IMG/VR virus record: IMGVR_UViG_3300021255_001361
Coordinates: 776 to 64,775 of that record
From: a virus
Taxonomy: Duplodnaviria > Caudoviricetes
Strand: one strand, 5' to 3'
Length of the DNA: 64,000 bases
The notes beneath the pieces are model-generated. The model had not been told where the DNA came from. It was given only the letters and a program-made list of their open reading frames with translations, and did not search any database. How positions within the stretch are numbered: the stretch's first letter is position 1; every line of letters begins with the position of its first letter. Below are positions 4,442-36,489 of this stretch, piece by piece. Made by a program: the position numbers and the translations under genes.

Positions 4442-5166
4442 AACAATACCCCCTTTAATACATTTGACTGTTCAGTTTTACCATTAAACACGTTTGACAG
4501 CATCGCTGTAGATACATTATAAATTTTAGATAGTTCTGTCAATGTTGTACCCCGCTTATATTGTTTATAAGCTGATACTACTTGTTCATCTGACAACTTA
4601 CGGTGCTTCTTACCCATTATGAAAACTCCTTGACGTTGAATATCTGAATAGTCAATTTTGAAATCATTAAGTTCATCATATTTATATTTATTATGTTGAG
4701 TTAATAACCTACTAATTGTCTGTCCTGCTGCTCCATAAATACTACCTAACTCATTCATTGAATATCCACTTTGCATCAATTTATAACAATCTAATATTTG
4801 TTGCTTTGTTAAAACAGACCTTGATAATGCCTGTTTTTTATGTGCATTACCATAATTCAGATTATATTCATTAGTACACCATTCAAGATTATCAACACAA
4901 TTATTTGATGGATTCTCATCTTTATGATTTACAAATGGTAAATTGTTAGGGTTTGGTATAAATGCTTCTGCTACAAGTCTGTGTACTTTATAAGACTTGG
5001 CTATTCCATTTTTGTTTAAAACTACGTCAACATATTTCTTCTTACGATTAGTTGGAGTGCTTAAAAATCTATTATATCTACAATTATACACTCTACCCAA
5101 ATTACTTACCTGATAAATACCTTCGTAGTTTTTAATATCTTTCCAAACTTCCTGCTCATTATCCAT
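4438..5166 (-). CDS. NUMOD4-HNH homing endonuclease with C-terminal HTH repeats
   Basis: EVWKDIKNYEGIYQVSNLGRV (NUMOD4); VHRLVAEAF...VNHKDENPSNNCVDNLEW (HNH). Confidence 0.9.
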   Translation of the reverse strand: MDNEQEVWKDIKNYEGIYQVSNLGRVYNCRYNRFLSTPTNRKKKYVDVVLNKNGIAKSYKVHRLVAEAFIPNPNNLPFVNHKDENPSNNCVDNLEWCTNEYNLNYGNAHKKQALSRSVLTKQQILDCYKLMQSGYSMNELGSIYGAAGQTISRLLTQHNKYKYDELNDFKIDYSDIQRQGVFIMGKKHRKLSDEQVVSAYKQYKRGTTLTELSKIYNVSTAMLSNVFNGKTEQSNVLKGVLL

Positions 5167-5196
5167 ATAGTTATCTCCTTTCTTTAGTATAGCATA

Positions 5197-5382
5197 TCAT
5201 TTATCTAAAGTAAATAATACACTTGTTTCTTTATGATCCTGTACTTTTTCCCAACAGGTTCTTCCATATCCTCTGATCATATATTCCGGGTTCTTCAATT
5301 TTCTTCCACACCGTAAACATCGTGGATAACTTTTTCCAGTTGCTTCTTCTTTCTTGTTAAGTTCCTGTCGCTTCTTTCCCAT
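5197..5382 (-). CDS. Small zinc-ribbon protein (DUF6011-like)
   Basis: CLRCGRKLKNPEYMIRGYGRTC pattern; overlaps the next ORF. Confidence 0.6.
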   Translation of the reverse strand: MGKKRQELNKKEEATGKSYPRCLRCGRKLKNPEYMIRGYGRTCWEKVQDHKETSVLFTLDK

Positions 5383-5546
5383 TTTCGGTAAAACTCCTTA
5401 TCTGTCGCTGATCTGATCCTCTCTTCTGAAAAATACCACTCACCACATCTTTTGCAAATCATTTTTCGATATACTTCTGGTTTATCTCGGTAATTAGGTC
5501 TGGTATCTATTACAGTTAGTCTATTTTTGCAATTTGGGCATATCAA
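5295..5546 (-). CDS. NrdR-N-like zinc-ribbon protein
   Basis: MICPNC...VIDTR...RKMICKRCGEWYFSEE resembles the NrdR zinc ribbon. Confidence 0.6.
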   Translation of the reverse strand: MICPNCKNRLTVIDTRPNYRDKPEVYRKMICKRCGEWYFSEERIRSATDKEFYRKWERSDRNLTRKKKQLEKVIHDVYGVEEN

Positions 5547-5562
5547 TCTGGATCAACCCCTT

Positions 5563-6504
5563 TCATAAGATATTAGATATTACATAATCTATTGCTACAT
5601 CCTCTTCAATCTCTCCGGTCTTTATTCTACGCTCTACCGATTGTATCAGTTTCATTATGTATATCAGATTGTTTGTGCTGAATTTTCCACAACATTCTTT
5701 TGCATTTCTTATCTGCCAGTATGTAAGTCCTGTTGTCTTTTCTATGTCTTTGCTTTCGCAAGTCTGTACCTGTAACAACTGTTTAGTGCTGTTGAATAAT
5801 ACAGACAGAATAGCAAGGTTAGATTCTCCTACTGCATTACATTCCTCTAACAGACTATAAGCTAACTCTACCCTATTCTGCAATACTGCTTTTACAAAAT
5901 CAAATATTGCATCTTTAGGCGGTTGATAGATAGTTCCGTCATTCATCAACATTTCAAACCCGTTGTTGTAGATATTTCTGATTAATGTAGGGTTGCTGTC
6001 GGAATATCTTTTTATCTTATCTATTTCCAATAAACATCTGCTGTAACTTCCTTCACACGCTTCTATCAGTCTATCACAGTTCTTGTCAGATAAGTCTATT
6101 TCTTTCTGTATGTATCGCTTCACTAAATCGCTTTTAAGCACATTAAACTCGATTATGCTATCTTTATACGTCTTATATAGTTTAGTGCGCTTATCAACGC
6201 TTGTAAGCGTTAAAATGAGTATGTCTGTATTCAGTCTACTTATCAATTCTTTTTGTAATGTTTCGTTACTGATAAGTTCCTTATCATCTAATACCACATA
6301 ACAATAATTGACTTTCAGAAAAGACTGACTTCCTAATTCTGTTAGTATCTCTGTTACGCTGTCTATATACCTAACTGTCAGATTTCTTGCTTTAGCTATG
6401 TGCTGTATATATATCTTCTGGATTGCATATTCTTCACCAGCAAATATCATAAAGTTAGGTATATCATTCTCCTTTATCCGCTGTTTCAGTTCTTGTATTT
6501 CCAC
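5563..6504 (-). CDS. holA: DNA polymerase III delta subunit-like clamp loader subunit
   Basis: MIFAGEEY, DKRTKLYK, SRCLLEIDKI, IFDFVKAVL HolA-like segments; GTG start after GGAGG. Confidence 0.8.
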   Translation of the reverse strand: MEIQELKQRIKENDIPNFMIFAGEEYAIQKIYIQHIAKARNLTVRYIDSVTEILTELGSQSFLKVNYCYVVLDDKELISNETLQKELISRLNTDILILTLTSVDKRTKLYKTYKDSIIEFNVLKSDLVKRYIQKEIDLSDKNCDRLIEACEGSYSRCLLEIDKIKRYSDSNPTLIRNIYNNGFEMLMNDGTIYQPPKDAIFDFVKAVLQNRVELAYSLLEECNAVGESNLAILSVLFNSTKQLLQVQTCESKDIEKTTGLTYWQIRNAKECCGKFSTNNLIYIMKLIQSVERRIKTGEIEEDVAIDYVISNIL

Positions 6505-6640
6505 ACCAATCCTCCACGCTTCTCTTATCATATAAATTACAATTTTCTGCAACATCTGTGTACGCATCTGGACAAGGCTTTAATCCTTCTCTAAATGCTT
6601 TCCAACTGTATTCACAATTACTACAACCTACTTTCTGCAT
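6464..6640 (-). CDS. Small Cys-rich hypothetical protein
   Basis: CSNCEY...CPDA...CNLY; TAATG-coupled to the upstream gene. Confidence 0.55.
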   Translation of the reverse strand: MQKVGCSNCEYSWKAFREGLKPCPDAYTDVAENCNLYDKRSVEDWCGNTRTETADKGE

Positions 6641-7458
6641 TACGACCACACCTTTCTGATATTCAGAATCCACACATCAAGCAACATACTCTTGTTTATT
6701 CCTGTTACTGAATTGAGCATAGATAATGTATTAGATGTTACCTTGACTGCTTCTATCCAATAATTACGTTCTTCTTTATCTTCTATCTCCTGTATATGTT
6801 TATTGCATACACGCTGAATAGCTGTAAGGAACATCTTTAAATCATATCCCTCGGCATCTGGTTTAAGTGCTATCTTGCTTGTCAGTTTGAATACATTGGA
6901 TATACTTACATATGCTATGTTATCTATTACTTTTTCCACATATTTGTAAAACTCATCTGCACCCATACTGAATAGCAAATCCACATCACCAGGCGTTCTG
7001 CATAACTCCCATACTATATTACTATCAAAGTCTGTCTGTTTGGATAGTGCATACTCTAATATCTCATCTTTTGAATATGCATCCATAGTCTGTATATATG
7101 CTCTACTCAATACAGTATTAAGAACATTCTGCCTGTTGCATACTGTCATTATGATATATACATTTCTTGGATATTCTTCCATGACTTTCAGTAATACATT
7201 CTTTGATGCAACCGACATATCATCTATGTCAGTCATTATAAAGATAGTTGGTGTTGATACCTTGTACATACAATGTATAGCTGTTCTGATAGTCTCTACC
7301 TTATTATCTGGACAGTAATAAGAATACCAACCTGTCTTATGTATAATCTCTTTAACAAGTGTTTTCTTTCCACTTCCTTTATCGCCAAGAATAAGCATAA
7401 AGTGTGGAAGTTCTTTCATGTTGTCTATATTTGCCAATACATTTTTCTGACCTATCAT
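6640..7458 (-). CDS. holB: DNA polymerase III delta-prime-like clamp loader subunit
   Basis: MIGQK...LPHFMLILGDKGSGKKT; ASKNVLLKVMEEYP; NTVLSR. Confidence 0.85.
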   Translation of the reverse strand: MIGQKNVLANIDNMKELPHFMLILGDKGSGKKTLVKEIIHKTGWYSYYCPDNKVETIRTAIHCMYKVSTPTIFIMTDIDDMSVASKNVLLKVMEEYPRNVYIIMTVCNRQNVLNTVLSRAYIQTMDAYSKDEILEYALSKQTDFDSNIVWELCRTPGDVDLLFSMGADEFYKYVEKVIDNIAYVSISNVFKLTSKIALKPDAEGYDLKMFLTAIQRVCNKHIQEIEDKEERNYWIEAVKVTSNTLSMLNSVTGINKSMLLDVWILNIRKVWS

Positions 7459-16828: not shown

Positions 16829-18292
16829 TTAAAATAACATTGATGTATTCTCTGAAATTATATCAGCCTTATTTACTGCACTTAAATTAACAGTATTAGC
16901 ATAATCTATTCTCGCTTTAGATATAGCCAAATATTCTTTATTTAATTCTATACCTATGTACTTATAATTCTTGTTGGTAGCCCGGTTTTCAAAAACTACT
17001 GCTTTTCCGGTACTACCACTTCCGTTAAATGGATCGAGTATTACACCATCTTTAGGTGTTACAAGTTTGATCAAATACTGCATAAGTTCCATAGGTTTTA
17101 CAGTTGGATGTGTATTCTTTCTTAAATTATTACGCACATTTCCACTACCTGTAAGTAGTGACTGATTTTCTGTGTCTATCATACCTCCACCTACTTTATC
17201 TATAAACTTACCTAACCCCTCATCACGGTCCTTTTTACTTGCTTTTGCACAATAGAAGTACCTTGCGGCTGACCCACTATCCATGGGTGCTACATATCCG
17301 GTGTCTATACGTTTGGCATTACTTGTTTGACCAAAAGAAAGTTTATCAATACCTATTGCTTCTTTTGATTTTTGCCCTACGTCTCTAAAATCCTGTGATG
17401 TGGTCCTTCCACCATTACTTTCACTATATGGCATACCACCACAAACTTCTTGCTCGTCTGTTTCATCATAAGTAAGTATAACATTTGACGGGAATCTTCC
17501 GTTATGATCTATATTCAATGCCTCTGTTTCTTGAAACATACCTAATGCTTTGCCGGTTCTTTCATCACCAGCCATTGGGTTTTTCCTTGCTCCATTTGTA
17601 GTTATTACATCTGTACCTATTCTACACTCGTCAATATTAAGCCCACCGACACCATATTTAAGTACATTATCTGTAACACTGCCCTCACAAGGTTTTCTTG
17701 CTACAATAATAGGCTCATATGCTGGTTTTAGGGCTGTTCCCCAACCGTCCCACTTCTTGCCCTCTTCAGTCTGATAATTAACATTAACTGTTCTTGCGTG
17801 TTCATCAGCAGAATAGTCAGATGGTCTGGCACCGTAAAATTCATTGTTAGCGTTTAATCCCCAGTTGCCGGATTTAGTCTTTGTGCCATCTAAATTCTTC
17901 CACTCTTGGGTATTTGCGCTACCCGTAGTAAGTTTACTTTCAATCGCTTTGCCTAAATTCATAGATTTAGGAAACCCCGAACCATACAACCACATAATTG
18001 TATCTCTGATCTCAAATCCCGCATCTTCAATAGCAACTGCGATCCTGTGAAAAGTTCTACTACCACCAAATGCTAACAAATAACCACCTGGTTTTAACAC
18101 TTCATAACATTTCTTCCAAGTATCAGATTGAAAAGCTACACCGGAATTATCCCAGCCCTTGTTCATAAAATTTAATTCGTATGGTGGGTCCGTTACGATA
18201 CTGTCAATACTACTATGATCAATATGATCTAACATATCCAGCATACTGCCCTCGTACAGCGTATATATATCATTTTTACTATATAATTTCAC
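16829..18292 (-). CDS. Beta-class N6-adenine/N4-cytosine DNA methyltransferase
   Basis: SIVTDPPY precedes HPTVKP and DPFNGSGSTG; GTG start after AAGGTGG. Confidence 0.9.
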   Translation of the reverse strand: MKLYSKNDIYTLYEGSMLDMLDHIDHSSIDSIVTDPPYELNFMNKGWDNSGVAFQSDTWKKCYEVLKPGGYLLAFGGSRTFHRIAVAIEDAGFEIRDTIMWLYGSGFPKSMNLGKAIESKLTTGSANTQEWKNLDGTKTKSGNWGLNANNEFYGARPSDYSADEHARTVNVNYQTEEGKKWDGWGTALKPAYEPIIVARKPCEGSVTDNVLKYGVGGLNIDECRIGTDVITTNGARKNPMAGDERTGKALGMFQETEALNIDHNGRFPSNVILTYDETDEQEVCGGMPYSESNGGRTTSQDFRDVGQKSKEAIGIDKLSFGQTSNAKRIDTGYVAPMDSGSAARYFYCAKASKKDRDEGLGKFIDKVGGGMIDTENQSLLTGSGNVRNNLRKNTHPTVKPMELMQYLIKLVTPKDGVILDPFNGSGSTGKAVVFENRATNKNYKYIGIELNKEYLAISKARIDYANTVNLSAVNKADIISENTSMLF

Positions 18293-18305
18293 TCTATTAC
18301 CACCT

Positions 18306-18515
18306 TTAAAATAATTTATTACTCTTGCACTCCTGTACAAACATATTATCAAATATAGCCATAAGTACATCGACTACAATACTGTTTCCAGCTTGTTTAT
18401 ACTTTTGTGTGTTACTTACTGTAAGTTTCTCATAGTCCTCATCTTTAACTCCCATAAGTCTAAAACATTCTTTTGGTGTTAATTTTCTAATCCTATACTG
18501 TATCTCATTATTCAT
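18306..18515 (-). CDS. C5 cytosine methyltransferase C-terminal peptide (motifs IX-X)
   Basis: YRIRKLTPKECFRLMG...YKQAGNSIVVDVL; has its own AGGAG RBS. Confidence 0.85.
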   Translation of the reverse strand: MNNEIQYRIRKLTPKECFRLMGVKDEDYEKLTVSNTQKYKQAGNSIVVDVLMAIFDNMFVQECKSNKLF

Positions 18516-19651: not shown

Positions 19652-20352
19652 AGTTGACCACTTACAATCAATTTATCTATAAGTTCCTGTGCTTTTTCGG
19701 AATTGATATAATACTTTTCATCTACATCAGTTTCCAACACATCTTTAAGTCTTTTATCTAACACCTTTGGTTTTGGAAACTCAAACACTTTATTCTCTGA
19801 TCTTAAAATACTAACCATGAAACATCTTTCTCTGTTCTGTGGTACTCCATAATCTTTTGCGTTAAGTAATTTATACTGATTATTATAACCTAACTTTGTA
19901 AGAAATGAAGTCCATTCTGAAAACAATTTAAGATTATCATTACTGATTACCTGTGGCACGTTCTCCATCAGTAAATACTGTGGGAGTTCTTTACATTCAG
20001 TAAGTATTCTCTCAACTTCCCACAACAAACTTGATGAAGTACCACTCTCTCTCTGCATGCCCTTACGTTTTCCGGCCACCGATAAATCGGTACAAGGAAA
20101 CGAATATGTCATAAGGTATTTGTAATTCTGGGTGTCTGTAATATTTATATCGTCTGCGTGAACATTCTTCACATCTGATACTTCAAAGTTAGTTCCATGA
20201 ATTTCATTGTATGACTGCATGGCATACTTATCAAATTCACATACAAACCAATGTTCCATAGGTACACCCAAGTATTTTAAAGCTAATGCCTGTGATCCAT
20301 ACCCGGCAAATAACTCTATAAGTCTTATAGGATTTTTAAACTTATAACTCAT
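19642..20352 (-). CDS. dcm: C5 cytosine methyltransferase catalytic core (motifs I-VIII)
   Basis: LIELFAGYG (I), FPCTDLS (IV), LLMENV (VI), GVPQNRERCF (VIII); motifs IX-X absent. Confidence 0.9.
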   Translation of the reverse strand: MSYKFKNPIRLIELFAGYGSQALALKYLGVPMEHWFVCEFDKYAMQSYNEIHGTNFEVSDVKNVHADDINITDTQNYKYLMTYSFPCTDLSVAGKRKGMQRESGTSSSLLWEVERILTECKELPQYLLMENVPQVISNDNLKLFSEWTSFLTKLGYNNQYKLLNAKDYGVPQNRERCFMVSILRSENKVFEFPKPKVLDKRLKDVLETDVDEKYYINSEKAQELIDKLIVSGQLPN

Positions 20353-21356
20353 TCTATTACCACCTTTTCACCATACCACGCTTTTGTTATCTCAACATCA
20401 CAGCCTATCGGCATTTCAAGTATCTTTTCAGCCGCCTTACTCATTGTTTCTGCTAATAACTTTGCACACTCTTTAACATTCTCCTCTGGACATTCTGCTA
20501 TGACTTCATCATGTACAGGGATAAGAAGTCTGAAACCTAATTCTTTAAGTCTCTGATTATTATTAAGTTCTATCATAGCAAGTTTAGTTAAATCTGCTGC
20601 CGATCCTTGAATCCGGGCGTTTACACATTGTCTTGAAGCATCTGCTATCTTTGCCCCATTATCTACTATCCATATACCTTCTTCATTTGCCTTTTCAAAG
20701 ATTTTCTTCTTCTCACCAAACTTACATTTATGTAATTGAGTAAGATATTTTCTGATAGTTCTTTCTGGTATTTCTTGCTCTACCTCATCATCAAAGTCTA
20801 ACACATCATTATCAGGTGCAACTCCATTCTTCCACTTAAACTCATACTCTTCAAGCTGTAAATCTGGAAGTCTGCGCTTTCTACCGCATACAGTTGTTAC
20901 ATATCCTGTTTCGTATGCCATATCAAGACTTTCATCTTCAAATTTCTTTATAGCTGGAAAACCTTTAAACACACTATCTTTGATTGCCTGTGCTTTCTCT
21001 GGTGTGCATTTAAGCTGTTCAGCTATGCTATTTACTCCTCTGCCATACAGCACACCTAACAGAATACTCTTCGCTTGTGTTCTTCTTTCTTTACCAGCTT
21101 TGTTTGTAGAACCGTCTGGGTTAAACTCTCGACACTCTTCATAAGGTTTATTGAAGGCTTTACTTGCAATCTCTGAATACAAGTCTTTACCTTGCATAAA
21201 TGTATTATACATCTGACTATCACCGTCTTTTCTACAAAGTGCCGCTAAAGAACGGGGTTCTTGTTGTGAATAGTCACTTGACATAAGAACATACCCTGGA
21301 CTTGCTATAAACATCTTTCGTATATCTTTATTGTGTGATGGAATGTTCTGTAAATT
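20349..21356 (-). CDS. polA: Family A DNA polymerase, exon 2 (polymerase motifs A, B, C)
   Basis: NLQNIP, SSDYSQQEPR, RTQAKSILLGVLYG, VHDEV. Confidence 0.93.
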   Translation of the reverse strand, partial: NLQNIPSHNKDIRKMFIASPGYVLMSSDYSQQEPRSLAALCRKDGDSQMYNTFMQGKDLYSEIASKAFNKPYEECREFNPDGSTNKAGKERRTQAKSILLGVLYGRGVNSIAEQLKCTPEKAQAIKDSVFKGFPAIKKFEDESLDMAYETGYVTTVCGRKRRLPDLQLEEYEFKWKNGVAPDNDVLDFDDEVEQEIPERTIRKYLTQLHKCKFGEKKKIFEKANEEGIWIVDNGAKIADASRQCVNARIQGSAADLTKLAMIELNNNQRLKELGFRLLIPVHDEVIAECPEENVKECAKLLAETMSKAAEKILEMPIGCDVEITKAWYGEKVVIE

Positions 21357-22102
21357 CAAATTGTTATCTTACAGGCTCTTTATCCTGTAATTCTAACACT
21401 TGTTGTTCGTGTTAGTTCAGACTATATCTCAAACTTTATCATAACTTTCAAAACGCCCATTAATTTTGTTTCTTCTGCGCTCTAAATCAACTTTGTGTTG
21501 TACTTTTTGATGATCTATTCGGTTAGTTAATTCCAAGTTTTCAAGTCTATTATCCAACTTATCTCCATTTATATGATGTACAATCTCATTAGGTTTTAGA
21601 GGTCTACCTAAATGGTTTTCCATTACTCGTCTGTGTAAAGCGTATCTCTCATTTACAGTTGATACATATACATATCCATCATATATGTATGTTCTATCTA
21701 ATCTGCCATTACCTCTACGCTTTAAACCCAATTTACAGGCTTTATGTAGAATTGCAGATTGACTTTTATTAAGATAGTTTGCACATTTTTTAACACCTAA
21801 TACTGAATAATTCTCAACTAACCATTTTACATCATCTTGTGTCCACCATTTATACATAAATATCACCTCGCTTTCACAAGGAATATTTTATCATAACTTG
21901 GTATGTTTTGTAAAGTTATATTATAAAGTCAACGGGCACTCGTGTTCCTTTTATTATTTGTGCTATTCAAGGATTAGTCGTTGCACCTTTTACCTACTTT
22001 TATGCACTTCGGTAACTTGGCACAGGATCAGCATTTCAGCTTTCCCTGTTTTCACCCGTTTACGCATTTAGTAACTCACGCTACTAACGCCCAATTTACT
22101 TT
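21357..22102 (-). mobile_element. Group I intron (746 nt) in polA
   Basis: 5' exon ends in U, intron ends in G; R CAACGACUA and S GAGAUAUAGUC give P7 (21975-79/21420-24); P9 hairpin 21369-21390; splicing restores SSQDP|NLQNIP in frame. Confidence 0.9.
21429..21857 (-). CDS. Intron-encoded HNH homing endonuclease
   Basis: LHRRVMENHLGRPLKPNEIVHHINGDKLDNRLENL; lies between R and S (P8 loop). Confidence 0.9.
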   Translation of the reverse strand: MYKWWTQDDVKWLVENYSVLGVKKCANYLNKSQSAILHKACKLGLKRRGNGRLDRTYIYDGYVYVSTVNERYALHRRVMENHLGRPLKPNEIVHHINGDKLDNRLENLELTNRIDHQKVQHKVDLERRRNKINGRFESYDKV

Positions 22103-23389
22103 AGGGTCTTGGCTTGACATTCTTCCTGTTACTGCACCATACTGTCTAAAATTACAATGTATTCTTCCGTCATTAGGATTTACACAGCTTGGTAGTTTAT
22201 CAATATAGGTGCTTATCAGCTTCTCAATTTCTCTGTAATCTATAAGTGCTTTGGACAACGGTGTATCCCACTTTAACAGTATATCTCCACCTGTTCCTCT
22301 TGGTGCTTTCTTATCAACTACTTCATATCCAAGAATATCATAAAACAGAATTGCAAGCTGTGTCGGACTTGCTATATTGATAGGATTATCAAGTTTACAG
22401 TCTGTATGCTTCAATCTGTAGCTTTCAATCTTGTCATTAAACTCACTCAAACGCTCATAGAACGCATTTAATTTATCTTTTAATATATTATTATATCTTT
22501 CAGATAAAACTTGATTATAAGTCAAATCAAGAAGTATTCCATTATCTTCCATATCAGCTACTACTGATATACAAGGCATTTCTATATTCTTAAATACCCA
22601 ATACAGATTTCGCATATCTTCTCTATCGCTGTCTGATCGTAAATACTTTTTCTGGTACTCATAATACTCATAAGTAATTACAGGGTCATGTGCGGCATAA
22701 AGTACAGCAGTCTGTAATGGCACCATTGTAAATGGTATTCCCTTGAATAACTCTTCAAACGTAAACTCATCTTCTTTACCATTAAGTACATACTTCTGGT
22801 GGAGTTTTTTAAGTGCATTGTTTGGTTCATTTTCATTAAGCAATCTTGCGGCTAAATAACAATCCCAAGTGCAGTATATGTCTTTAAGTCCAACTCTGCT
22901 ACGCATAAATCTCATATCAAACTTGGCATTAAACATTACTATTTCTATCTTACTTTGTATTAATCGGTCAAAGTGCTGTTTAATTACATCTACTGATAAC
23001 TGATTTGGTATAGGCATATTAGTTATGTATGATACATGATTAATCGGTATGTATGCACCTTGTCTGTTTGGTGTATAGATACATATACCAGCTATTTCAT
23101 CCTGTAAAGGGTCAAGCCCTGTTGTTTCTGTATCTATACTAATTACACCATTTTTAATTGCACCATCAATATATTCAATTAAGTCATTTTCCTCTGTAAT
23201 GACTAAATAAGAATCTTTGAATTTACCAAGATGTAACTCTACCAACTTCTGCGCTTGGGTTATTCTATCAAGTAAGCTGTTCCCACCTCTTACAGTAGGA
23301 ACAGCTTTTCTTGTGGAATTAGACTGCTTTGCTAACTTCATATCGTTAGCCTTACTATTTGTTCTTGTAGGTAAATCAAATAGTGGCAT
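22103..23389 (-). CDS. polA: Family A DNA polymerase, exon 1 (3'-5' exonuclease and thumb)
   Basis: IDTETTGL (ExoI), FNAKFD (ExoII), YAAHD (ExoIII), AVTGRMSSQDP. Confidence 0.93.
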
Positions 23390-32889: not shown

Positions 32890-33669
32890 TCAAGACTTAT
32901 GACCTCTTCCCTTACTATATCCGTTGTCTAAATATGTTTGTAGTTCGTCAACATTTATAAGCGTTCTATGTTCGCCATTATTTACCCAGATTCTATTTTT
33001 TAAGGATTCACTTATTTGTTGTTTTTGTTGTTCGCTTAATTTTAATCCTTTGTTCCAAGCTCTATTACCACGATTAGCTTTACTTACTTTTTGTTTCATT
33101 TCTTCCGAACCAGGTATTCCTTTATTCCAAGGTGTGTGTCCTAAGTGTGCTTGTGATAGTTTTTGTCGATATTCATCTGACAATTTTTTCCCTTTATTCC
33201 AAGCAGTTCTTCCTTTATTAGCTTGAGATATTTTTTGCTTCTGTTCATCTGTAATATGTTTTCCTCGATTAAAATGTGCATGATTCTGTTTAATTTTTTC
33301 AATCGTTTCTGCATTTCTATGTTTGCCTAAATTAAGCTGTCTTAATTTTTCTTTTGTCTCATCTGACATAGCTATCCCTAATGGTCCACAATCACCACCG
33401 ACATACACATTATATCCATATTTAGGATTATTAGTTTGAAATTTAGTAATAAGATATTTTTCACATTCGCAAGCCACTTCTTTAGAAAGATTTTCAAGTA
33501 AAACAATATGTTTAATATTATCCCAACCATATTTCTGTATTGCTCGATAAAATAGTTTTTGTACTGAGTATCCTCTACCATTATTTTTCCATCTTGCTTC
33601 AACTGCTTTACTTGTAATACCTATATAAATTTTATTATTTGGTGCTATGTGTGCATATAAAGTGTACAT
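32890..33669 (-). CDS. GIY-YIG homing endonuclease with NUMOD3 repeats
   Basis: TLYAH...KIYIGIT, YRAIQKYG, GYN; repeated SEE.KQK.S...G..AWNKG. Confidence 0.9.
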   Translation of the reverse strand: MYTLYAHIAPNNKIYIGITSKAVEARWKNNGRGYSVQKLFYRAIQKYGWDNIKHIVLLENLSKEVACECEKYLITKFQTNNPKYGYNVYVGGDCGPLGIAMSDETKEKLRQLNLGKHRNAETIEKIKQNHAHFNRGKHITDEQKQKISQANKGRTAWNKGKKLSDEYRQKLSQAHLGHTPWNKGIPGSEEMKQKVSKANRGNRAWNKGLKLSEQQKQQISESLKNRIWVNNGEHRTLINVDELQTYLDNGYSKGRGHKS

Positions 33670-33714
33670 TTTAATTCTCCTTTCATTTGCATTAGACATA
33701 GTACCATTATATAA

Positions 33715-34800
33715 CTAATTAATCAAGAAATCAATAATTTCAGACGCATTTCTTTTATTAAGAGCACCATCTACAAGTGCATCTGACATAGCACCTTTCT
33801 TCTGCACAAGTTCATGGATTCTTTCGTCTATTGTATTCTTGCACATAAGATTGTAGATTGTTACATTGTGCTTCTGTCCAACTCTGTGGCATCTATCTGT
33901 TGCCTGGTCATATAATGCTTTGTTCCAAGGCTCATCAAGGAATATCTCAACTGTGCCCGCTGTAAGGGTAAGACCTGTACCCATAGCACCGATTGTACCA
34001 ACTATAATCTGACTTGCACCTGTCTGAAATTCATTTACATTATCCTGCCGGTCTACATCTTTAGTATTACCTGTGATAACAGATACACGATAGTTTTTAT
34101 GTAATCTTGCCCAAACAACGTCCGTCATTTGTGTCCAGTTTGAGAAGATAACAACCTGCTGTCCATTTTCTACAGCTTCTTCAACAAGTTCTTCCATTCT
34201 ATCAAGTTTAGCACTCTCTTGTACTTTAGTTGAAAGAATACCTGTATAGCCTGTTGCTTGTCTCATTCTGATTAACTCTGCAAGCGGATTAGGTGCTGTC
34301 TTTATGTTATCAATATTGTTCTGCACATCTGATGTAACTTCTTTATAGATAACAGCTTGCTTTGGTGTCATATCAACATATTCATCTATGTATGTTTTTT
34401 CTGGCAAATCTAAAACTTCATCTTTAAGTCTACGCAACATTATGTCATTCAGTCTTTCCTGTAACTCGTCAAGATTCTTGTAGCCAACTACTTCATATCC
34501 GCCATAGCCACCCATTACACAGTAGTGATTCTTAAACTTGTAAAAAGCGTTCTTCTCATAACCAAGCCATTTAAGAATTATATATAAGTCCATAGGCTGA
34601 TTCATAAGTGGTGTACCTGTCATAGCAATTCTACATTCCGGCTGAATTTTGAGAATACCTTTGCCTTGCTGACTTGACGGATTCTTACAGTTGTGTGCAA
34701 GTATTCCTTCTACAAAGTAGTTGTGATTATCTTCAACTTCTATATCATATGTGAGAAATGATAAATCATCTACTGTTCGTTTAGAAATGAGTTTAGCCAT
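33715..34800 (-). CDS. SNF2 helicase C-terminal half fused to split-intein C fragment
   Basis: 37-aa IntC ending ILAHN|C, then MTGTP, VIFSNW, GTGLTL, QATDRCHRVGQ. Confidence 0.92.
   Translation of the reverse strand: MAKLISKRTVDDLSFLTYDIEVEDNHNYFVEGILAHNCKNPSSQQGKGILKIQPECRIAMTGTPLMNQPMDLYIILKWLGYEKNAFYKFKNHYCVMGGYGGYEVVGYKNLDELQERLNDIMLRRLKDEVLDLPEKTYIDEYVDMTPKQAVIYKEVTSDVQNNIDNIKTAPNPLAELIRMRQATGYTGILSTKVQESAKLDRMEELVEEAVENGQQVVIFSNWTQMTDVVWARLHKNYRVSVITGNTKDVDRQDNVNEFQTGASQIIVGTIGAMGTGLTLTAGTVEIFLDEPWNKALYDQATDRCHRVGQKHNVTIYNLMCKNTIDERIHELVQKKGAMSDALVDGALNKRNASEIIDFLIN
34690..34800 (-). mobile_element. Split intein C-terminal fragment (IntC, 37 aa)
   Basis: Block F TYDIEVEDNHNYFVEG, block G ILAHN, +1 Cys. 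Confidence 0.92.
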
Positions 34801-35420
34801 TTTTTAAACTCTCCTTTCTTTATTTGTTCGTGTGTAAATCTGACGGTTTTAAATCCAAGAAACTCTAAACATTCTTCTTTCTTTTTATCAAGTTTAATTT
34901 GTTCCGGTAAGGTGTGATTACGCCCGTCAATTTCGATACATAATTTCTTTAATGTGTTTGTAAAATCCGGTTTATAACTTTTTGCATAGTGTCTATCTGG
35001 AAATGTATCTCTTGCTAATTTTGTATTTATTGCGTAGTTATAATAAAATCCGGCTTGTATTAAATCATTATATACAAGCATTTCATATTCTGATATTTTA
35101 CCATTACCATATTTAAAGTTGTTTGGTAAATGTCCTCGTTGTAACTTTGTTTTATTTGACTTTTCTATCACACCGGGAATATATGTAGGATTATAATTTT
35201 TCATATATTCGATTTTCTTTTTTCTAAATTCTACATCTTTCCATCTATCTCTTAATATTTGCGCATTTTTCCTTTTCGTTTCTTCGCTTATTAAGTTAGG
35301 ACCAAATGTTTTATTTCTCCATTTTGCCGAACATGATGTATTGCAAAATCGTTTTCGTTGACCATGTTTATCATCAGAAACTTCAAAACTCTTACCACAA
35401 AATTCACAAATTTTAATCAT
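34770..35420 (-). CDS. Free-standing Vsr/DUF559-like endonuclease with N-terminal zinc finger
   Basis: CEFC...FCNTSC; YKPDF...LCIEIDGRNH...D..K...L...GFKTVRF. Confidence 0.85.
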   Translation of the reverse strand: MIKICEFCGKSFEVSDDKHGQRKRFCNTSCSAKWRNKTFGPNLISEETKRKNAQILRDRWKDVEFRKKKIEYMKNYNPTYIPGVIEKSNKTKLQRGHLPNNFKYGNGKISEYEMLVYNDLIQAGFYYNYAINTKLARDTFPDRHYAKSYKPDFTNTLKKLCIEIDGRNHTLPEQIKLDKKKEECLEFLGFKTVRFTHEQIKKGEFKKWLNSFLNEQ

Positions 35421-35435
35421 AAGTTTTACCTCCGT

Positions 35436-35484
35436 ATCTTTCATTTATGTGTTAATCATATCACATAAATGAAAGATTGTAAAG
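35436..35484 (-). promoter_or_regulatory. Promoter TTTACA-17-TATGAT overlapped by a 16-bp inverted repeat
   Basis: ATCTTTCATTTATGTG/CACATAAATGAAAGAT at 35436-35451 and 35462-35477, ending next to the GGAGG RBS. Confidence 0.65.
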
Positions 35485-35787
35485 TTAAAATTCTTGTATA
35501 TCATCATAACTTGTTAAATCTTCTGCCCTAACCCAGCCACGATTTTTTGTAAAAAACTTATGTCCTTTTGTGCATTTGATGGTCTTAATTCCAGATTTTG
35601 TTTCAAACTGTAACTCTAACAACTGTTCCGCAATAACATTTTCATGCCAATCTACAACACGTTTCCACTCTGTCTGTTTTGTGATTTCGTTGTATGACAA
35701 TACTGAACAATTAATTTGTTCTGTAACTATATCACCTATTTTTAATGTTCCTACATCGGTTGTAACCAATGTATTATAATCAAAACA
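35485..35787 (-). mobile_element. Split intein N-terminal fragment (IntN, 100 aa)
   Basis: Block A CFDYNTLVTT, block B KCTKGHKFFT..GWVRAEDL. Confidence 0.92.
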
Positions 35788-36489
35788 CTTATGTATCTCA
35801 TCTATTGCTACAAGACCAATCTCACCTGATTTGCATTTATTTGCGATTTCAGACACGATTCTTTCGTCACGCATAGTTTCTACGTTAGTGATAATAAAAT
35901 ACGCTTGTAGCGCATTTAGTGCGCATATATCAGTATATTTATCGCTGTTAGACCCTATGACTGTTTTATCTGCTCTTGTACGCTGTCCGAGAATGTAAGC
36001 ATCTTCGTTTGAGTGGGTATGAATTTCATTAACCCAGTTCCACTTCAAACCATTAACACCACAGATTATAAGACAATGCTTATATCCTTTCTGTAACTTC
36101 TTTGCGATTGCAATATCAATTACTTGTTTTGTCTTGCCAAGTCCTTGCTCATCACCGAGAAGCCATCTGTCATATTTAAGTCCATAGTTGAAGCCATCTA
36201 TCTGATGTTCAAAAGGCTTTGTCTTAAATTCAAACCCTGTAGGCATTTCAGCTTTTTTATCTTCTAAAGCACCGAAGTCCCCAGAAATATCAAAATCATA
36301 ATTTGATAACTGATCTGTAAGATACTGTAATTTCTTTACAGGTATCTCCCACTCTTTAGTATCTTTGTTCCAGTACCTTGTTGGTAAATCCCTTATAGTA
36401 TCTATTACTTTCTGATCATACGGAAATGATACAAAAAGTGCGTAATCATCACCGATGTTTTTAGAGTTTTTAATCTTTATTGTTATCAT
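35485..36489 (-). CDS. SNF2 helicase N-terminal half (HARP-like domain, motifs I-II) fused to split-intein N fragment
   Basis: DEQGLGKT, AIDEIHK|CFDYNT..., then a 100-aa IntN and a stop. Confidence 0.92.
   Translation of the reverse strand: MITIKIKNSKNIGDDYALFVSFPYDQKVIDTIRDLPTRYWNKDTKEWEIPVKKLQYLTDQLSNYDFDISGDFGALEDKKAEMPTGFEFKTKPFEHQIDGFNYGLKYDRWLLGDEQGLGKTKQVIDIAIAKKLQKGYKHCLIICGVNGLKWNWVNEIHTHSNEDAYILGQRTRADKTVIGSNSDKYTDICALNALQAYFIITNVETMRDERIVSEIANKCKSGEIGLVAIDEIHKCFDYNTLVTTDVGTLKIGDIVTEQINCSVLSYNEITKQTEWKRVVDWHENVIAEQLLELQFETKSGIKTIKCTKGHKFFTKNRGWVRAEDLTSYDDIQEF

Follow-up and report, generated by a model that had tools for sequence, protein, structure and literature searches.

How does a bacteriophage obtain a working helicase from a gene that is broken in the middle of its ATPase site? 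The question is raised by a locus in a 64,000-nucleotide (nt) stretch of viral DNA, hereafter the window, which corresponds to positions 776 to 64,775 of the IMG/VR record IMGVR_UViG_3300021255_001361, a viral contig of 64,775 nt with an estimated completeness of 94%. The genes of the locus are all on the minus strand and include three open reading frames (ORFs). The two outer ORFs encode the halves of an SNF2-family helicase, each fused to one half of an intein, and the middle ORF encodes a putative homing endonuclease. The locus is very probably a functional 'fractured gene', in which a mobile element of 1098 nt occupies the codons of motif II (Walker B, DEIHK|CKN) of the phage helicase. With equally high confidence, the element can be read from its sequence as the two halves of a class 1 mini-intein and, between them, a separately expressed homing endonuclease gene (HEG) whose predicted product combines a zinc finger with a Vsr-fold nuclease.

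The first ORF (35485..36489, minus strand) encodes 334 residues: a 234-residue N-terminal part of the helicase (N-extein, 36489..35788), followed by the N-terminal intein fragment (IntN) and a stop codon. The third ORF (33715..34800, minus strand, 361 residues) begins with the C-terminal intein fragment (IntC), which is followed by Cys+1 (34689..34687) and the 324-residue C-terminal part of the helicase (C-extein) with motifs III-VI and a Helicase_C domain. The second ORF (34770..35444, minus strand, 224 residues as the longest ORF) encodes the zinc finger and the Vsr-fold nuclease and overlaps the third by 31 nt. An earlier reading of this DNA, made from its letters and ORFs (the sequence-only reading), had described the three ORFs within 33715-36489, and its 100-residue IntN, 37-residue IntC, 558-residue joined protein, and DEIHK-CKNPSS junction are accurate to the residue.

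The N-extein has a HARP-like N-terminus, motif I GLGKT at residues 116-120, and motif II DEIHK. The Pfam profile PF00176 SNF2-rel_dom, with a cut-off of 24.9 bits, matches residues 96-241 of the first ORF with 32.1 bits and covers profile positions 2-143 there. In the third ORF the same profile reaches 54.2 bits over profile positions 134-262 and is followed by PF00271 Helicase_C with 66.3 bits. Because the profile is divided in this manner over the outer ORFs, they represent a single ATPase domain broken at the intein, which agrees with the division of SNF2 motifs noticed previously. The helicase also matches phrog_62 'DNA helicase' at 2.1e-93. The combination of an SNF2-related ATPase carrying motifs I and II with a Helicase_C lobe is that of an SNF2-family helicase of superfamily 2 (SF2). 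Joining the exteins (234 + 324 residues) gives a protein of 558 residues, whose motif II, DEIHK-CKNPSSQQGK, does not differ from the one in intein-less relatives.

The sequence inserted at this junction has the features of a class 1 intein at both ends. IntN (35488..35787, minus strand) is 100 residues long. It starts with Cys1, which is residue 235 of the first ORF, in the motif CFDYNT, contains block B with T-K-G-H (the TxxH pattern), and ends in an acidic tail, RAEDLTSYDDIQEF. IntC (34690..34800, minus strand) is 37 residues long and extends from a basic start, MAKLISKR, through YDIEVEDNHNY to AHN. Its C-terminus, NHNYFVEGILAHN, ends in His-Asn and is directly followed by the cysteine at position +1. 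A basic IntC start combined with an acidic IntN end is the usual pattern of split inteins. In searches with intein hidden Markov models, TIGR01445 intein_Nterm matches residues 235-314 of the first ORF with 37.9 bits (cut-off 24.5 bits) and TIGR01443 intein_Cterm matches residues 17-38 of the third ORF with 34.9 bits (cut-off 15.6 bits), and both fragments proposed in the sequence-only reading exceed the curated cut-offs. Cys1, the threonine and histidine of block B, the aspartate of block F (in YDIEV), H36, N37, and Cys+1 (C38) are invariant in the eight loci compared. The intein is split: the first ORF stops after IntN, a separate ATG and ribosome-binding site (RBS) precede IntC, and each half is fused to a half of the helicase.

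Related loci were collected by scanning IMG/VR with the N-terminal half of the helicase as the query. The scan gave 35 loci, which are labelled with L-numbers; W denotes the window copy. Eight other IMG/VR loci (L005, L006, and L008-L013) have the same three-ORF layout, with a stop after IntN, a spacer of 3-69 nt between IntN and the longest HEG ORF, and an overlap of 28-35 nt between the HEG and IntC ORFs. The motif-II split inteins belong to three sub-lineages (W, L005, L006, and L007; L008-L010; L011-L013), between which IntN is 57-62% identical. More than 20 loci encode the helicase as a single uninterrupted ORF of 557-585 residues, in comparison with the 558 residues predicted for the spliced protein of the window. 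At the corresponding position of these intein-less genes, DE.HK is followed by C, M, A, T, or N and then by KNP, with no gap. Six of the loci lacking the motif-II intein (L014, L017-L019, L023, and L036) match the spliced junction over 20 residues, G-x-V-A-I-DEIHK-CKNPSSQQGK. L036 (IMGVR_UViG_3300032038_000071) is the nearest relative by flanking DNA, with nucleotide identity of 83-88% (83-86% in the alignments on either side of the site), and it is continuous across the site. The limits of the insert are therefore fixed as 34690..35787 (minus strand), a length of 1098 nt that includes IntN, a control element, the HEG, and IntC and is missing from close relatives of the helicase. A megablast search of the locus against 50,697 phage records gave no match, and relatives among isolates are found only at the protein level. 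The nearest relatives of the helicase and portal proteins are from phages of Clostridium/Clostridioides, Streptococcus, and Bacillus. These relatives are consistent with the label 'Firmicute phage' of the sequence-only reading; however, at less than 45% identity they do not demonstrate the host group.

The window is a metagenomic contig, and its three ORFs might result from an assembly or annotation artefact, in which frameshift errors divide a contiguous intein with a nested endonuclease, or might be the remains of a dead pseudogene. The probability of such an explanation is negligible. Nine loci from different metagenomes agree in their stops, starts, RBSs, and overlaps although their proteins diverge by 20-45%, all parts of the element are under purifying selection, and the spacer downstream of IntN holds a conserved promoter-like site and a hairpin, not coding sequence. 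An independent goat-gut contig from 2025 covers positions 33766-36123 with 124 substitutions and no gaps. In the cross-study check, in which assembled contigs from four public runs were aligned to the locus, no insertions or deletions are listed. The three frames are thus kept in independent assemblies, which settles the concern about assembly frameshifts. An intron as the cause of the interruption is ruled out, as no Rfam family was detected in the helicase locus (a group I intron is present elsewhere in the window). The conserved layout, the gapless independent contig, and the lack of an intron in the locus together exclude a frameshift or pseudogene for practical purposes.

Selection was estimated from the ratio of nonsynonymous to synonymous substitution rates (dN/dS), with L005 and L006 as the reference copies. 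IntN has a ratio of 0.04, IntC one of 0.03-0.12, and the HEG, over at least 213 aligned codons, one of ~0.10-0.12. Several comparisons of the exteins were saturated in dS (returned -1), and their ratios were not used. The intein and the endonuclease are under purifying selection, with dN/dS values of 0.03-0.12.

It might be asked whether the intein halves splice at all. Phage enzymes that function in fragments without splicing are known (PMC3045599), and the halves could serve only to join the helicase fragments non-covalently, with no peptide bond formed, as in the fragmented NrdA of Aeromonas phage Aeh1. We regard this as highly improbable. All residues of the splicing chemistry are invariant over three diverged lineages, and mere association would not need them. 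Furthermore, the break is within motif II, where a HINT domain of 137 residues would disrupt the ATP site. A docking model of IntN with IntC has an ipSAE (interaction prediction score from aligned errors) of 0.73, compared to 0.00 for the best control. The modelling runs share at least 92% of contacts, and the predicted local distance difference test score (pLDDT) of the partner is at least 71. In a benchmark, the ipSAE mark was attained by 58 of 80 solved complexes and by two of 110 mismatched pairs. Like the purifying selection, the model is indirect support for splicing. Nevertheless, the agreement of the docking model may only reflect the likeness of the two fragments to split-intein complexes that have already been solved.

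The endonuclease encoded between the halves has an N-terminal zinc finger of the form CxxC...CxxxC, a helical linker, and a C-terminal nuclease of the DUF559/Vsr fold (residues ~108-216). Its translation probably starts at the second ATG of the ORF, at position 35420, where the start would give a protein of 216 residues. This ATG is 8 nt after a GGAGG sequence (35433..35429), and the homologues start there. The endonuclease gene is on the same strand as the helicase halves and free-standing, with the GGAGG RBS and a conserved promoter-like site with a hairpin. Profile PF04480 DUF559 (cut-off 20.6 bits) matches the window protein with 35.0 bits and the L008 copy with 44.2 bits, and there is a weak match to zf-FCS at the N-terminus. 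A search of the PDB with the single sequence retrieved only the DUF559 structure 3HRL, at E 0.18. A profile of seven copies retrieved 3HRL at E 6.9e-5, and the same profile did not retrieve the homing endonuclease I-Bth0305I (3R3P) at E <= 1.

The AlphaFold model of the endonuclease is confident for the C-terminal residues 108-216, with block-mean pLDDT of ~75-92. The N-terminal half is of low confidence (pLDDT below 50 at residues 17-42 and 82-107), and no fold is claimed there. Comparison of the C-terminal model by VIA-align gave Z-scores of 10.5 for 3HRL, 10.2 for 3R3P, 8.9 for Vsr 1CW0, and 8.6 for 1VSR. The Foldseek matches are weak, with E 0.058 for both 3HRL and 3R3P at probabilities of 0.99-1.0, and VIA-align was relied on instead. 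Judged by the model, the label 'Vsr-like' is right at the level of the fold. The zinc finger and Vsr-like endonuclease named in the sequence-only reading are accordingly matched by the zf-FCS and DUF559 profiles and by a fold resembling Vsr and I-Bth0305I.

Residues D152, E163, D165, H169, and D178 and the cysteines of the zinc finger are invariant in the seven copies of the endonuclease. Residue E163 is 11 residues past the aspartate of the PD motif, and an extra invariant glutamate of the Vsr-like family has the same 11-residue spacing, relative to Asp51 and Phe62 of Vsr (Dassa 2009, PMC2677866). The putative catalytic motif was compared with the composite Glu, Asp, His, Asp motif of the EDxHD enzymes by this spacing, and the profile of the endonucleases does not find 3R3P at the threshold given above. 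The number of zinc fingers varies: W, L005, L006, and L011 have one, and L008, L012, and L013 have two. Domain profiles of the NUMOD type gave no match when the N-termini of the endonucleases were searched for them.

The spacer between IntN and the HEG contains a control element (35436..35483, minus strand), in which a promoter-like site is interleaved with a hairpin. The -35 box TTTACA (35483..35478) and the -10 box TATGAT (35460..35455) are separated by 17 nt, have a TG upstream, and match in 10 of 12 positions; the three loci L011-L013 have a perfect TTGACA at the equivalent position. The site is supported as a promoter of the HEG because it is kept at the same place in six related loci. 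The sequencing runs listed for the sequence include no RNA run, which bears on expression in neither direction. The hairpin, or palindrome, has a stem of 16 bp formed by arms 35477..35462 and 35451..35436 and a predicted energy of -23.4 kcal/mol (z = -6.9), and none of 200 shuffled sequences was as stable. The spacer between the promoter boxes is taken up by the 5' arm of the hairpin and the -10 box lies in its loop, with the 3' arm starting 4 nt past that box. The stem covaries among seven loci: at one position three loci have C:G, two have G:C, and two have A:U, and a second position pairs as A:U or as U:A, each in three loci. The Shine-Dalgarno region is paired in a weaker outer helix. Homing endonuclease genes of phage T4 are regulated in the manner proposed below for this hairpin and internal promoter. 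The IntC and C-half ORF has its own RBS, AAGGAG (34811..34816, minus strand), located within the 3' end of the HEG ORF.

The element is better conserved than the gene that hosts it, which is what a mobile element should show. Within the group of W, L005, L006, and L007, protein identity is 80-89% for IntN, 89-100% for IntC, and 80-83% for the endonuclease, in comparison with 56-62% for the N-extein and 70-77% for the C-extein of the host helicase. Similarly, L011 and L013 share 95% identity in IntN and 62% in the N-extein. Nucleotide comparisons gave identities of 66-88% (mostly 76-88%) for the element, against 50-84% (mostly 50-74%) for the exteins on either side. This difference fits a horizontal spread of the element by homing. 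Endonuclease modules have been exchanged between intein lineages as well. The one-finger HEG of L011 is closer to the HEGs of W, L005, and L006 than to those of L012 and L013, despite the intein lineage common to L011-L013.

One copy of the element has lost its endonuclease. In L007 (IMGVR_UViG_3300028048_000004, positions 4995-7113), no endonuclease separates the ORFs of IntN and IntC, which share 8 nt. The HEG has been deleted between short ..TACA repeats, and IntN is lengthened by 10 residues. Exactly the final ~38 nt of the HEG ORF are kept, including the RBS of IntC.

The L007 copy, which keeps the split intein after losing its HEG, bears on the possibility that the intein trans-splices and the endonuclease no longer homes. 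The endonuclease would then be a passenger, either decaying or domesticated, such as a regulator that binds the palindrome of its own promoter, and the element would persist because an imprecise deletion would destroy motif II. The high dS between the copies gives no sign of a very recent spread, and an operator is a possible role for the conserved palindrome that spans the -10 box. Autorepression by I-TevI is a precedent for an endonuclease that acts as its own regulator. However, a HEG dN/dS of ~0.1 and the invariance of the putative catalytic residues and zinc-finger cysteines in seven copies speak against this alternative. Many susceptible empty sites are available in the same phage group, and the HEG of L011 attests to the exchange of modules between intein lineages. 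Loss of homing is unlikely, although it is the most probable of the alternatives considered here.

The preferred reading, a fractured gene with a trans-splicing intein and a homing endonuclease, rests on the observed layout, residues, and selection, and its biochemical steps are predicted. Two polypeptides would be produced: a 334-residue fusion of the N-extein with IntN, and a 361-residue fusion of IntC with the C-extein, the latter translated from the RBS within the end of the HEG. The basic MAKLISKR segment of IntC would face the acidic IntN tail as the two fragments associate, and a single HINT domain would form. Splicing would proceed by an acyl shift at Cys1, trans-thioesterification to Cys+1, cyclisation of the terminal asparagine, and an S-to-N shift. 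The splice product would be the 558-residue helicase with the DEIHKCKNPSSQQGK motif intact. In a mixed infection, the endonuclease would cut intein-less alleles of the helicase gene at or near the junction, and repair would copy the whole element into them (homing). The hairpin probably blocks translation of the HEG from read-through transcripts of the helicase gene, and transcripts from the internal promoter, which would start without the 5' arm, would leave the HEG translatable.

Several points weigh against this scheme. Splicing, its rate, cleavage by the endonuclease, and the target site are all predicted from sequence. The dS of the intein is already 1.6-1.7 relative to L005 and L006, near saturation; the high dS between the copies means that the spread was not very recent. 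The higher conservation of the intein proteins could come partly from stronger constraint instead of transfer. The claim that the endonuclease has its own promoter stands in so far as the TTTACA-17-TATGAT site exists and is conserved; however, a promoter scan of the whole window was not above chance, with 19 sites compared to the 15.2 +/- 4.5 expected. As for the hairpin, it is just as possible that it acts as an operator in the DNA and not as a structure in the RNA.

The arrangement of the locus has been known since 2009, when fractured genes were described for eight host enzymes, among them gp41, IMPDH, DnaE, NrdA, NrdJ, DNA ligase, and terminase (Dassa, London, Stoddard, Schueler-Furman & Pietrokovski 2009, NAR 37:2560, PMC2677866). 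That study reports free-standing endonucleases of the Vsr-like or GIY-YIG type, overlaps of frames, and hairpins that precede the endonuclease ORF; neither SNF2 nor UvsW appears in it (PMC2677866). The window locus shares with the described cases a DNA-metabolism gene split at a conserved motif, an IntN that ends the first ORF, an IntC that starts the second helicase ORF, and a same-strand Vsr-like HEG between them. It also shares the overlapping frames, the hairpin upstream of the HEG, and the mainly phage setting. It differs in the host, an SNF2 helicase, and in the insertion at motif II, neither of which is among those of Dassa 2009. Furthermore, the N-terminus of the HEG has one or two zinc fingers whereas that of the earlier endonucleases is of the NUMOD type, and the sources are metagenomes of ruminant and animal guts, in contrast to the marine Global Ocean Sampling data.

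The closest solved intein in the PDB is NrdJ-1 (8UBS, E 1.3e-13; also 9OMB), with 30 of 82 aligned IntN residues identical (~37%), including the block ...TIKCT..H..FTKNRG.VRA..LT. It is followed in the ranking by the Spl DnaX mini-intein and DnaE inteins. NrdJ-1, which comes from the fractured-gene set that includes NrdJ and has a similar split site, differs in its ribonucleotide reductase host and in the flanking extein residues. With ~63% of the sequence different, cross-reactivity is unpredictable. The matches of IntN in the PDB at E <= 1 include no chain named gp41-1, which says nothing about orthogonality.

The catalytic domain of the endonuclease resembles that of I-Bth0305I (3R3P), the prototype of the 'EDxHD' motif (PMC3239194), over 91 residues with a root mean square deviation of 2.9 A and a Z-score of 10.2. 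Unlike the present HEGs, the gene for I-Bth0305I lies within a group I intron of recA, and its product has an N-terminus of the NUMOD/helix-turn-helix type where these have zinc fingers. The best sequence relative of the HEGs is the DUF559 protein 3HRL instead.

A homologous split intein occurs in cultured T4-like phages. The uvsW gene of Salmonella phage S16 (L003; NC_020416, 104626-107352) is divided into gp114, with UvsW_N and IntN, gp114.1, which is an endonuclease of the NUMOD3/TnsA-like type, and gp115, with IntC and Helicase_C. The junctions ..NDE|CFDGDT.. and ..AHN|CHLATGKS restore DECH. The three pieces are annotated in the record just as helicase, hypothetical protein, and helicase, and fractured uvsW genes are also present in phages STP4-a, SEA1, and CF-SP2 and in Proteus phage PM2. 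The S16 IntN is ~42% identical to that of the window, with an Intein_splicing match of 43.5 bits, and in both cases motif II of an SF2 helicase is interrupted and a free-standing endonuclease ORF is positioned between the halves. The differences are the UvsW host, the insertion three residues earlier (DE|CH versus DExHx|C), an IntC of 44 residues, and an endonuclease that combines NUMOD3 with a TnsA-like PD-(D/E)xK protein.

Inteins of SNF2 proteins have been reported from cellular bacteria, 15 in SNF2/HepA (COG0553), none of which was called split (Novikova et al. 2016, PMC4760082). Their likeness to the window intein rests on the shared family of the host protein, not on the insertion point. 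No helicase is among the hosts in the 34-intein library of Pinto et al. 2020, and a survey of actinobacteriophages from 2025 cites the Vsr-like endonuclease only from the split inteins of Dassa. The literature searched, which left most subscription journals and InBase outside, yielded no account of a split intein in SNF2 or UvsW, and a prior mention is possible. To that extent, an SNF2 host with an insertion at motif II is undescribed, as the sequence-only reading had supposed: Dassa 2009 has no SNF2 and the SNF2 inteins of Novikova 2016 were not called split. The locus is a known arrangement in a new host gene at a new insertion point, not a new kind of system, and it is common in metagenomic phages.

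The extent of the intein family was surveyed by an exhaustive HMMER search of 1.84 billion representative proteins with IntN, which gave 1499 matches at E <= 0.001. The best 150 of these 1499 matches were classified, and 61 of the 150 end at most 20 residues past the IntN match and look split. In 27 of the 61 split-looking proteins, the intein is preceded by DE.H and one or two residues, and 22 of these 27 have N-exteins significantly similar to the helicase of the window; in another nine of the 61, ..DE| stands before the intein. Among the best 150 of 1499 matches, at least 22 protein clusters carry the motif-II split intein with an SNF2-like N-extein. The survey also retrieved protein P0021, which has a contiguous mini-intein of 141 residues at the identical DEIHK|C site, and protein P0041 (553 residues), in which the SNF2 N-half is followed by an IntN that continues in frame into a Vsr-like endonuclease. 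The suggestion that the window holds a new split intein therefore stands for the SNF2 host and the motif-II site, for which no description was found; however, the intein is not an isolated type, as it is homologous to NrdJ-1 and belongs to a large metagenomic clade.

It is possible, with a chance slightly short of even, that the motif-II split inteins of phage SF2 helicases (DExHx|C in SNF2 proteins and DE|CH in UvsW) form one large NrdJ-1-related clade that has no description in the literature found. Such a clade would include dozens of clusters at 50% identity and at least three sub-lineages in the SNF2 helicase family. It could yield several mutually orthogonal and fast pairs with a native Cys-Lys-Asn C-extein, and its HEGs would be under the control of a promoter-inside-hairpin switch.

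Natural split inteins are used to ligate and cyclise proteins, to deliver split proteins, and to build logic circuits, and the fastest ones known (gp41-1, NrdJ-1, and IMPDH-1) came from fractured phage genes of this kind. The three sub-lineages, with IntN ~57-62% identical and in a new extein context, are raw material for orthogonal sets, to which the much larger clade across SF2 helicases may be added. The locus family is an unusually complete series in which all stages of homing occur side by side: the empty site, the full element, the copy without the HEG, the cis mini-intein, and the fusion of IntN with the HEG. It is also useful for studying how free-standing endonucleases stay silent until needed.

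Other mobile elements are found at the same helicase gene. The L036 helicase (L036:3597-6320, 907 residues) contains a contiguous LAGLIDADG intein of 349 residues in the P-loop, with the junctions GLGK|ALALNT...VVTHN|TKQV. This intein begins with alanine instead of cysteine or serine. The goat-gut contig has an insert of 1051 nt at the P-loop position (window 36123/36134) beside the motif-II element, and motif-I and motif-II inteins can therefore coexist in one gene. Directly behind the window helicase, 16 nt after its stop codon, starts a homing endonuclease gene of the GIY-YIG + NUMOD3 type (32890-33699, minus strand), which matches TIGR01453 with 62 bits and phrog_314. It is a second selfish element at the helicase gene. 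In L018 and L022, a GIY-YIG-like ORF occupies this position behind an intein-less helicase, and the goat-gut contig has 861 different letters at the position of the GIY-YIG gene. Together, the motif-I intein site and the flanking GIY-YIG gene make a good natural system for studying the crowding of selfish elements in one phage gene.

Two further genes of the window are interrupted. The family A DNA polymerase is encoded by two ORFs (22076..23389 and 20349..21359, minus strand), which match positions 9-127 and 127-286 of the DNA_pol_A profile. The sequence between them contains a group I intron (RF00028, 22112..21865), with 56.7 bits compared to a gathering score of 50, and an ORF of 145 residues (21866..21429) with an HNH-like motif, HHINGD...N..N. 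In the N6/N4 DNA methyltransferase (16829-18370, minus strand, 513 residues), the 221-position Pfam profile is spread over residues 55-485, indicating an insertion of roughly at least 200 residues inside the protein.

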